DNA of 4,407 nt from a virus (lineage: Duplodnaviria; Heunggongvirae; Uroviricota; Caudoviricetes), in the IMG/VR virus record IMGVR_UViG_2667527595_000022, positions 1-4,407 of that record; one strand, given 5' to 3'. A model generated the notes under the pieces. The model was given only the letters and a program-made list of their open reading frames with translations, did not search any database and was not told the origin of the DNA. Below, in pieces: positions 1 through 534 of this stretch. The translations under genes and the position numbers were made by a program. The first letter of the stretch is position 1. Each line of letters opens with the position of its first letter.

Positions 1-16
1 GGAGGGGCTTTTCTGT
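1..16 (+). terminator. Partial rho-independent terminator (3' half of hairpin plus T-tract), cut by the window edge
   Basis: Bases 1-16 (ggaggggcttttctgt) are nearly identical to 484-499 (ggaggggctttcttgt), the 3' stem and T-tract of the complete hairpin at 473-500. The 5' stem lies outside the window. Confidence 0.3.
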
Positions 17-202
17 GCAGGATGTGTCACAGTTTCCTGAATTCTGAGTACTGTCCTGTTACTCAGGGTGCTATATTTTCTGACGTGATGAAAGTCTGCC
101 GGAAGGCGGAACGTATCGGAAATGACCCAGTAGAGAAAACGTTGACTCAGATACCGATGCTGAGTTACCGGGAAACCGGCATCACATGACCGCTATCCTT
201 CC

Positions 203-226
203 AGGCTCGCTCCGGCGGGCCTTTTT
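203..226 (+). terminator. Rho-independent terminator-like hairpin
   Basis: 8-bp stem aggctcgc (203-210) / gcgggcct (215-222) with one G-U wobble, tccg loop, then TTTTT (222-226). No ORF ends just upstream, so it would terminate a non-coding or leader transcript. Confidence 0.5.
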
Positions 227-472
227 ACTGCAGAAAACAGTTTTCCCGTAAAATGCCACGTTACTCACAATTCAGGCTGGCGATTATTGTCTGGCCAGCG
301 GGAAGTTTGTTAAAAAAATATGGCATGGTGAATCCCCCTGTGCGGAGGGGCATATCAGCGACAGGTGTTTGGTCACACCCCTTATCCTTTCTGGTGCGGG
401 TTCAGGTGCTGATACTGAACTCACCGGGAGGCACCCGGCACCATGCATGAACGGTACATAGCGCTACTCTCC

Positions 473-500
473 AGCCCCTCTCCGGAGGGGCTTTCTTGTT
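473..500 (+). terminator. Rho-independent terminator hairpin
   Basis: Perfect 8-bp GC-rich stem agcccctc (473-480) / gaggggct (485-492), tccg loop, followed by T-rich tract ttcttgtt (493-500). Same stem and loop as the partial copy at 1-16. Confidence 0.6.
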
Positions 501-502
501 GG

Positions 503-534
503 ATAAAAAAAAGCCCGCGCCGGGAAGCGCGGGT
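503..534 (-). terminator. Possible minus-strand rho-independent terminator (hairpin followed by U-tract when read on the minus strand)
   Basis: Plus strand shows an A-run (503-512) followed by stem ~513-520 / 527-534 (gcccgcgc ... gcgcgggt) with a 6-nt loop. On the minus strand this is a GC hairpin followed by 8-10 U. No minus-strand gene lies upstream of it in the window. Confidence 0.3.

Follow-up and report, generated by a model that had tools for sequence, protein, structure and literature searches.

The window analyzed here is the whole stretch of 4,407 nucleotides (nt) at positions 1 to 4,407 of the Caudoviricetes virus record IMGVR_UViG_2667527595_000022 in IMG/VR, and its first 534 positions carry three similar hairpins on the plus strand. 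Our analysis indicates with good confidence that these hairpins are the 3' ends of three structured small RNA genes of the STnc100 family (Rfam RF02076) arranged head to tail, and that window 1-534 is, just as probably, the distal portion of an island of small RNAs in the leader of a lambdoid late operon. This confidence is a joint one for the whole explanation, its inferred transcription and Hfq-binding steps included. The reading is carried by Rfam matches at all three sites, which lead us to interpret the hairpins as the terminators of three copies of one RNA gene; the likeness of the hairpins follows from their being homologous portions of one duplicated gene of 150-180 nt.

The three genes are referred to below as units 1, 2 and 3, and positions upstream of the window are given in L001, the Escherichia coli UPEC-245U chromosome record NZ_CP049845.1, from which window coordinates are obtained by subtracting 7000. 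Window 1-720 is 100% identical to this chromosome and 99.6% identical to the isolated phage PhiR5_2.

Three related probable small RNA genes and their terminator hairpins

The original prediction, made from the letters of the window alone, had described three plus-strand hairpins with the same TCCG loop, each followed by a T-tract, the first and third with identical stems. Scans and folds recovered all three, every loop was TCCG, and the identity of the two stems holds: the first hairpin, whose 5' arm lies just upstream of the window, is complete at L001 6990-7009 and has the stem of the third and the same free energy of folding (dG -17.3). For each terminator hairpin, 0 of 200 shuffles folded as well. 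Terminator-like sites numbered 13 in the window, as compared with 4.5 +/- 2.2 in shuffles, and 14 in the 2.6 kb around the region, as compared with 2.6 +/- 1.7, so that such sites are approximately three to five times commoner than in shuffled sequence. The same range also holds a fourth hairpin that the original prediction had omitted, a terminator on the minus strand (533-514), which is discussed further below.

Comparison with Rfam placed units 1 and 3 well within the STnc100 family, for which the curated gathering threshold is 47 bits. Unit 3 scored 138.2 bits (E 1.6e-31) at 294-503, and 158.2 bits with R1, a covariance model of our own; the corresponding values for unit 1 are listed in Table 1. 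Unit 2 was matched at 54-229 with 30.0 bits (E 7.9e-4), and this score below the threshold makes it a structural homologue outside the curated family boundary. It nevertheless keeps all helices by means of compensatory changes relative to the canonical copies, and its fold taken alone gave z = -2.86 against its shuffles. The centroid fold of unit 3 is the family consensus.

The consensus was derived from a MAFFT alignment of eight copies from four prophages, unit 2 included, and comprises 35 base pairs, 11 of them with compensatory changes that mostly separate unit 2 from the canonical copies. R1 was built from this alignment; PasD2, a small RNA of enteropathogenic E. coli (EPEC) E2348/69, was left out of the seed because MAFFT misplaced its 3' side. 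R1 gathered 26 copies (20 of them distinct) at 14 loci, among them 933W, H-19B, VT1-Sakai and other Shiga toxin (Stx) phages. Across the 20 distinct copies 99.0% of cells were paired and 14 of the 35 pairs had changed on both sides, values that none of 500 shuffles reached, while sliding the pairing partners lowered pairing to 38-52%. The covariation that the original prediction had proposed to look for is present in these compensatory changes; over 17-150, structure was no better than in shuffles (z = -0.40).

In the consensus, a closing helix of 8 bp encloses a first hairpin, then a variable region, then one hairpin of 8 bp and one of 5 bp, the latter directly against the helix's 3' strand; the linker and the terminator follow. 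The variable region folds as a hairpin in individual copies, unit 3 among them, and the scaffold as a whole forms a five-way junction of 105-129 nt. Identity across the 20 distinct copies was 83-91% in the closing helix and the first and last hairpins and 38% in the linker; the linkers fall into few discrete types, with units 1, 2 and 3 each carrying a different one.

The scaffold invites comparison with tRNA, since Stx phages carry tRNA-plus-terminator cassettes at the same locus and the units could be degenerate or mimic tRNAs descended from them, with the scaffold as a tRNA-like module. An end-to-end alignment of R1 with the argO tRNA and terminator of 933W (L007 7-122) scores 28.1 bits, the stem of the unit 2 terminator (AGGCTCGC/GCGGGCCT) recurs unchanged after argO, the last internal hairpin abuts the 3' strand of the closing helix in the manner of a T-arm, and the array is immediately preceded by tRNA genes in loci L004, L005 and L014. 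However, the score of argO falls to 1.4 bits once its terminator is removed and the terminator alone gives 10.1 bits, which indicates that the argO signal comes mostly from the terminator. The neighboring tRNA-Ile and tRNA-Arg genes have no R1 match, ARAGORN found 0 tRNA genes in the window, the Rfam tRNA model RF00005 did not match the scaffold at E values up to 10, and a five-way junction of 105-129 nt is not a 76-nt cloverleaf. We therefore regard the units as very unlikely to be altered tRNAs, with a tRNA origin as a possible, weakly supported idea.

The same segments contain two open reading frames (ORFs), at 22-189 (55 amino acids, aa) and 253-450 (65 aa), and could accordingly encode small proteins. 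A coding sequence is annotated at the homologous place in PhiR5_2 and others (a hypothetical protein, 22-189), and ribosome footprints have been reported on some STnc100 copies of EDL933 (PMC5331693). Yet neither frame has a Pfam match, the ORFs of homologous copies start elsewhere, are shorter, or are absent, and a start at 22 would precede the predicted promoter. Furthermore, the allele differences in the first hairpin of unit 2 are paired stem changes that alter amino acids (VCRKAE vs ACQQAG), which is the pattern of RNA rather than protein constraint. The absence of Pfam matches and of conserved starts and lengths agrees with the earlier statement that no convincing ORF is present, and we consider a coding function extremely unlikely.

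Table 1. Coordinates of the three units, their signals and the neighboring features (window positions unless L001 is stated).
Feature	Position	Strand	Details
Unit 1	L001 6855-7016, ending at window 16	+	STnc100 145.1 bits at L001 6827-7018; R1 168.5 bits
Unit 1 terminator, 3' half	1-16	+	3' arm GGAGGGGCT at 1-9, T-rich tail at 10-16
Unit 2 extended -10-like element	69-77	+	TGc TATATT, 5 nt before the inferred start A83; a reading of the sequence
Unit 2, divergent, ~146 nt	83-229	+	Closing helix, three internal hairpins, linker 188-202, terminator
Unit 2 intrinsic terminator	203-227	+	AGGCTCGC-TCCG-GCGGGCCT at 203-222, then T5; dG -15.6 kcal/mol
Unit 3 promoter-like elements	287-316	+	TTGTCT 287-292, 18-nt spacer, TGt TAAAAA 308-316, 6 nt before G323
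Unit 3, canonical, ~177 nt	323-499	+	Closing helix 323-330/439-446, four internal hairpins, linker 447-472, terminator
Unit 3 intrinsic terminator	473-500	+	AGCCCCTC-TCCG-GAGGGGCT at 473-492, then TTCTTGTT; dG -17.3 kcal/mol
EcOnc42-type small RNA	~693 to 506	-	Tail-to-tail with unit 3, antisense to esterase leader; ends from alignment
Minus-strand terminator	533-514	-	CCCGCGCT-TCCC-GGCGCGGG plus T8; dG -15.9
Gene order upstream in L001			ninB, ninE, rusA, ninH, antiterminator Q, 197-aa ORF with DnaD_N-like domain, then gap
Esterase, NanS-p-like sialate O-acetylesterase	735-2708	+	DUF1737/SASA/DUF6645; Pfam scan, RefSeq annotation
Genes after the esterase			DUF1378, DUF826, holin, lysozyme; Pfam scan, RefSeq annotation

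Predicted starts, the late promoter and possible function

In order to place the 5' ends of the units we relied upon PasD2, whose 5' end, as given by RNA-seq coverage and Northern size, falls at the homologous GCATGGTG and aligns with window 323 and L001 6855; the genomic start of PasD2, GCATGGTGAATCC, is the start of the closing helix. By this homology the RNAs would start near 83 (unit 2), 323 (unit 3) and L001 6855 (unit 1). The suggestion that the segments 17-226 and 227-500 each yield a discrete terminated small RNA was right as to the kind of product, whereas its 5' bounds, 17 and 227, are probably wrong and belong near ~83 and ~323.

When the 55 nt upstream of every copy were aligned, the canonical copies, drawn from prophage and Stx-phage loci, were found to share TTGyCT, a spacer of 17-18 nt, TGtTAAAAA or a close variant, and a further 6-7 nt before the G of GCATGG. 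Most copies examined carry such elements; the TG is missing in PasD2, and unit 2 has no clear -35. The TGcTATATT of unit 2 is retained in its 86%-identical allele (L004, L006). Promoter regions of Salmonella STnc100 copies have been located by RpoD ChIP-exo, chromatin immunoprecipitation with exonuclease digestion (PMC10794520). These sequence elements suggest that each unit likely has an autonomous extended -10 promoter.

Another motif, CACAATTCAG, is conserved at window 258-266 and lies ~47-57 nt upstream of the RNA start in canonical units. An inverted version occurs upstream of unit 2 (36-50), where it forms with 262-276 a 15-nt inverted repeat that brackets the unit; the motif could be a regulator site or a scar of duplication. 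A direct repeat (96-106/720-730) and other short repeats in two copies were treated as chance.

The RefSeq-annotated surroundings in L001 are the late region of a lambdoid prophage. From the stop codon of the antiterminator Q gene (179 bits against Pfam PF06530) it is 1323 nt to window position 1, and the hairpins precede the late genes on the late strand, as the original prediction had anticipated. That prediction also spoke of an untranslated leader of ~700 bp; the region is indeed untranslated, but the full gap without annotated genes measures 1328 bp (L001 6407-7734), and the window enters it 594 bp in and covers its last 734.

Within such a leader the hairpins had been taken to be of the pR'/tR' type, a reading in which polymerase from pR' stops at them in the lysogen and leaves by-product RNAs like 6S or StxS, and only Q-modified polymerase passes. 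Q upstream, lysis genes downstream, and hairpins that are credible as intrinsic terminators on the late strand all fit this reading, as does the case of StxS, in which a pR'-tR' transcript serves as a functional small RNA (PMC7873438). A pR'-like unit was in fact found upstream as the original prediction had proposed, at L001 6475-6560 (525-440 bp upstream of the window), where promoter-like TTTACG-16-TATCAT is followed by AAGAGTGGTTAC and by a terminator, GAACCCGCCGATGCGCGGGTT plus T8 (6532-6553). Units homologous to this segment come immediately after Q in L005, L006 and L014 (AAGAGTGGTTAC ... AACCCGCCG...CGGGTTTTTT), and judged by that homology the segment is probably the genuine pR'/tR' (StxS-like) unit, which the 197-aa DnaD_N-like ORF has displaced from Q.

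Farther downstream, L001 6668-6763 holds a short unit with a terminator, GCCAGCCTCCCCTGGTGGCTGGC plus T7, at 6737-6763. No Rfam family was assigned to it, the sole match being Qrr at 23 bits, which is chance level; it could be a further small RNA of the island.

The terminators at 6532-6553 and 6737-6763 bear directly upon the pR'/tR' reading, since unmodified polymerase should stop at them, 240-470 bp before the unit 1 terminator hairpin, and would rarely arrive there. Two plus-strand terminators and the 197-aa ORF separate Q from the first of the three hairpins, and the units do not run, as a pR'-tR' transcript does, from a late promoter beside Q to the first terminator. Additionally, the tR' hairpins beside Q (AACCCGCCG...CGGGTTTTTT) are unrelated in sequence to the unit hairpins, every unit comes with a conserved promoter-like element of its own and with a 5' end mapped in a homologue, and homologous single copies lie downstream of stx genes, far from pR'. 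The pR'/tR' assignment of the three hairpins was therefore abandoned as improbable.

A related proposal is that the array acts mainly in cis, as a barrier of stacked terminators that silences the esterase and lysis genes in the lysogen and whose RNAs are functionless by-products. It is established lambdoid biology that lysogens must keep their lysis genes off, and five plus-strand terminators stand within ~1 kb ahead of the late genes, together with the convergent terminator on the minus strand. For a barrier, however, hairpins alone would suffice, yet ~110-125 nt of upstream scaffold are 83-91% conserved and carry compensatory changes; a promoter-like element in each unit would add transcription rather than block it; and the relatives of the units are abundant, are stabilized by Hfq and have partners in the sequencing of ligated interacting RNAs (RIL-seq). 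We consider a primary barrier role unlikely.

Taken together, these results point to small RNA genes whose action can be sketched from published relatives. In the lysogen, sigma-70 polymerase would transcribe each unit on its own, each transcript would stop at its own hairpin to give RNAs of ~162, 146 and 177 nt, and these RNAs would associate with Hfq and base-pair with mRNAs of host and prophage by way of the variable linker beside the terminator. After induction, as lambdoid biology would have it, Q-modified polymerase from the late promoter would pass all terminators into the esterase and lysis genes. By analogy with these relatives, the units are most likely three Hfq-dependent base-pairing RNAs with a common scaffold and different target specificities. 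The seed of PasD, UGUGAG, sits in the single-stranded linker directly before the terminator, and the corresponding linkers at 188-202 (unit 2) and 447-472 (unit 3) are putative seeds.

In uninduced EDL933, RNA-seq gives substantial read counts for most of the 11 STnc100 copies, one of which has been confirmed by Northern analysis (PMC5331693). PasD1 and PasD2 are likewise Northern-confirmed, need Hfq to be stable, and are paired by RIL-seq with core and virulence genes (PMC8550237). EcOnc27 binds Hfq, and its overexpression increases fimZ and espA transcripts (PMC12711010, PMC7873438); EcOnc27, EcOnc13 and others were identified through Hfq crosslinking. RNAs of this family rank with the most abundant partners of Hfq in pathogenic E. 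coli and adjoin Shiga toxin, esterase and lysis genes, and sequence variants of one family copy have been statistically linked to clinical outcome (PMC12711010).

Several observations weigh against this explanation. The score of unit 2 lies under the curated Rfam threshold, and its high R1 score follows by construction, unit 2 being a member of the seed; the alignment behind the pair counts was fitted to R1 and so leans toward structure, but the result of the eight-copy alignment, which was made with MAFFT alone, agrees with it in direction. A scan for consensus sigma-70 promoters returned none on the plus strand of 1-534, where the promoter-like elements came to light only through alignment with the upstream regions of homologous copies, and the canonical -10 (TAAAAA) is without its usual final T, for which reasons the autonomous promoters are rated as no more than likely. 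Homologues are the source of the proposed 5' ends, promoters and Hfq binding. With their short, broken runs of U (UUUUCUGU, UUUUUAC, UUUCUUGU) the tails are weaker than is typical of Hfq-binding ones, and the published links of STnc100-type RNAs to fimZ, espA and stxB are in silico or indirect, with no direct target demonstrated.

Finally, the scaffold is better conserved than the seed, which is unusual for a purely base-pairing small RNA and suggests that the scaffold may have a function beyond the one proposed here. One such arrangement would make the five-way junction the functional core, either protein-binding or a tRNA-like decoy derived from the phage tRNA-plus-terminator cassettes of this locus, with tandem duplication supplying new linkers that act as exchangeable seeds and unit 2 as an old paralogue that has kept the structure; we give this arrangement only a small chance.

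The minus-strand RNA and the remainder of the window

The small RNA on the minus strand (Table 1) is homologous to the EPEC small RNA E2348C_1409.E2348C_1408.IGR, with a mean column identity of 88% in a four-sequence alignment. The homology extends over CACGTTTTGTTGTTTATTCCTTGCC and the terminator, both conserved, and includes the seed region. The homologues in enterohemorrhagic E. coli (EHEC) are EcOnc08/21/42, and in E2348/69 the EPEC RNA likewise abuts a unit of the STnc100 family. AsxR (RF02703) and AgvB (RF02702) were rejected as identities of the unit, as neither matched window 495-740 at E values up to 10, and the Rfam search of this segment returned only weak terminator-driven matches to suhB and OmrA-B; in L006, the minus-strand slot holds AsxR (63.0 bits). 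The -10 region of the window copy reads CAAGAT as compared with TAAAAT in its homologues, and this degradation suggests that the copy may be weakly expressed.

On the plus strand opposite this RNA, at ~607-640, the window contains a disrupted hairpin (GCGCAACTGTATGG). An intact terminator-like hairpin on the plus strand of L004 and L006 at ~3040-3075 (CTGCGCAACTGCGCGG, T5) aligns with the terminator of PasD2, and the window element may be what is left of a PasD-type 3' end.

Farther along the late region, the DUF826 ORF and the holin gene are separated by a gap that holds, at 3370-3398 on the plus strand, a strong hairpin resembling a terminator (12 pairs followed by T6). The gap corresponds to the site of PasA in E2348/69, where PasA lies on the opposite strand.

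The final 426 bases of the window (3982-4407) belong to gcvP, a core gene, in minus-strand orientation, with 99.8% identity and a match in every one of 5426 complete E. coli genomes. Near 3981 gcvP abuts the prophage lysozyme gene, which is cut after ~108 codons, and none of the complete E. coli records covers at least 80% of 3600-4407. As the junction occurs in no complete E. coli genome, the window looks like a chimera, a misassembly or a rare rearrangement.

Distribution and comparison with known systems

Unit 2 was found in 673 of 5426 complete E. coli genomes (~12%) and was never annotated there. It occurs as two alleles, ~100% and ~86% identical to the window, and at every locus examined (L001, L002, L004, L005, L006, L014 and an E. 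albertii contig) canonical copies lie on both sides of it. The triplet loci stand behind several Q genes that differ in length, annotation or Pfam family, and some stand behind tRNA genes. A 19-nt motif of unit 2, searched in one genome per species, gave 51 loci, of which the sole Escherichia locus, in E. albertii, was confirmed by R1. Two of the loci outside Escherichia (Marinobacter, Collinsella) had no R1 match, and the remaining ones look like chance matches in GC-rich genomes, so that the motif scan says little about distribution outside Escherichia.

Neither the triplet nor unit 2 was found described in the literature searched, the coverage of which is incomplete. The novelty is low: the family is known and has been studied experimentally, and what is new, namely the conserved triplet and a divergent member below the Rfam threshold, is a minor addition. 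Because unit 2 is missed at the threshold and unannotated in RefSeq, surveys that rely upon BLAST or upon the gathering score undercount STnc100/Pas genes. The array shows that the family can occur as a conserved tandem of three genes; in other respects the feature is ordinary and already explained.

With respect to known systems, the closest likeness is to the STnc100/EcOnc27/sRNA103 RNAs. Units 1 and 3 match this model end to end and share the scaffold and a related terminator, whose TCCG loop is found in most STnc100 copies but not in those of 933W and H-19B. As in that family, the units have the late promoter on one side and the SASA esterase and lysis genes on the other, and the family is likewise present in many copies per genome, 11 in EDL933. 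Unit 2 differs from STnc100 in its stem sequences, its shorter scaffold, its linker and its score of 30 bits. The arrangement also differs: the Stx phage and EDL933 copies examined are single in each prophage and lie downstream of stxB, whereas the window has three members head to tail within 650 bp.

PasD1 and PasD2 of E2348/69, which are homologues of EcOnc13, resemble the units in their start (GCATGGTGAATCC), in their first hairpin, in their site between Q and the esterase, and in ending at a terminator; PasD is Hfq-dependent. PasD2 differs in having no last internal hairpin and in an unrelated linker and terminator, and the PasD seed UGUGAG is not present in the window units. Scored against the Rfam STnc100 model, PasD2 reaches 41.4 bits, and is thus also below the 47-bit threshold; a 2026 preprint describes PasD and STnc100 as being of common ancestry.

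Lambda 6S RNA and StxS are likewise short terminated RNAs of the late strand downstream of Q, with terminators expected to be overridden by Q. They run from the late promoter itself to the first terminator, whereas the window units lie behind two terminators, have promoter-like elements of their own and are unrelated in sequence.

Hfq-binding small RNA dyads located between the late promoter and the lysis genes have been reviewed for at least eight Sakai prophages (PMC7873438). Unit 3 and the minus-strand RNA are arranged tail to tail in the same way as the EHEC dyads AsxR/EcOnc27 and AgvB/EcOnc06; unlike in these dyads, the minus-strand partner in the window is of the EcOnc42/08/21 type and not a member of the AsxR or AgvB families.

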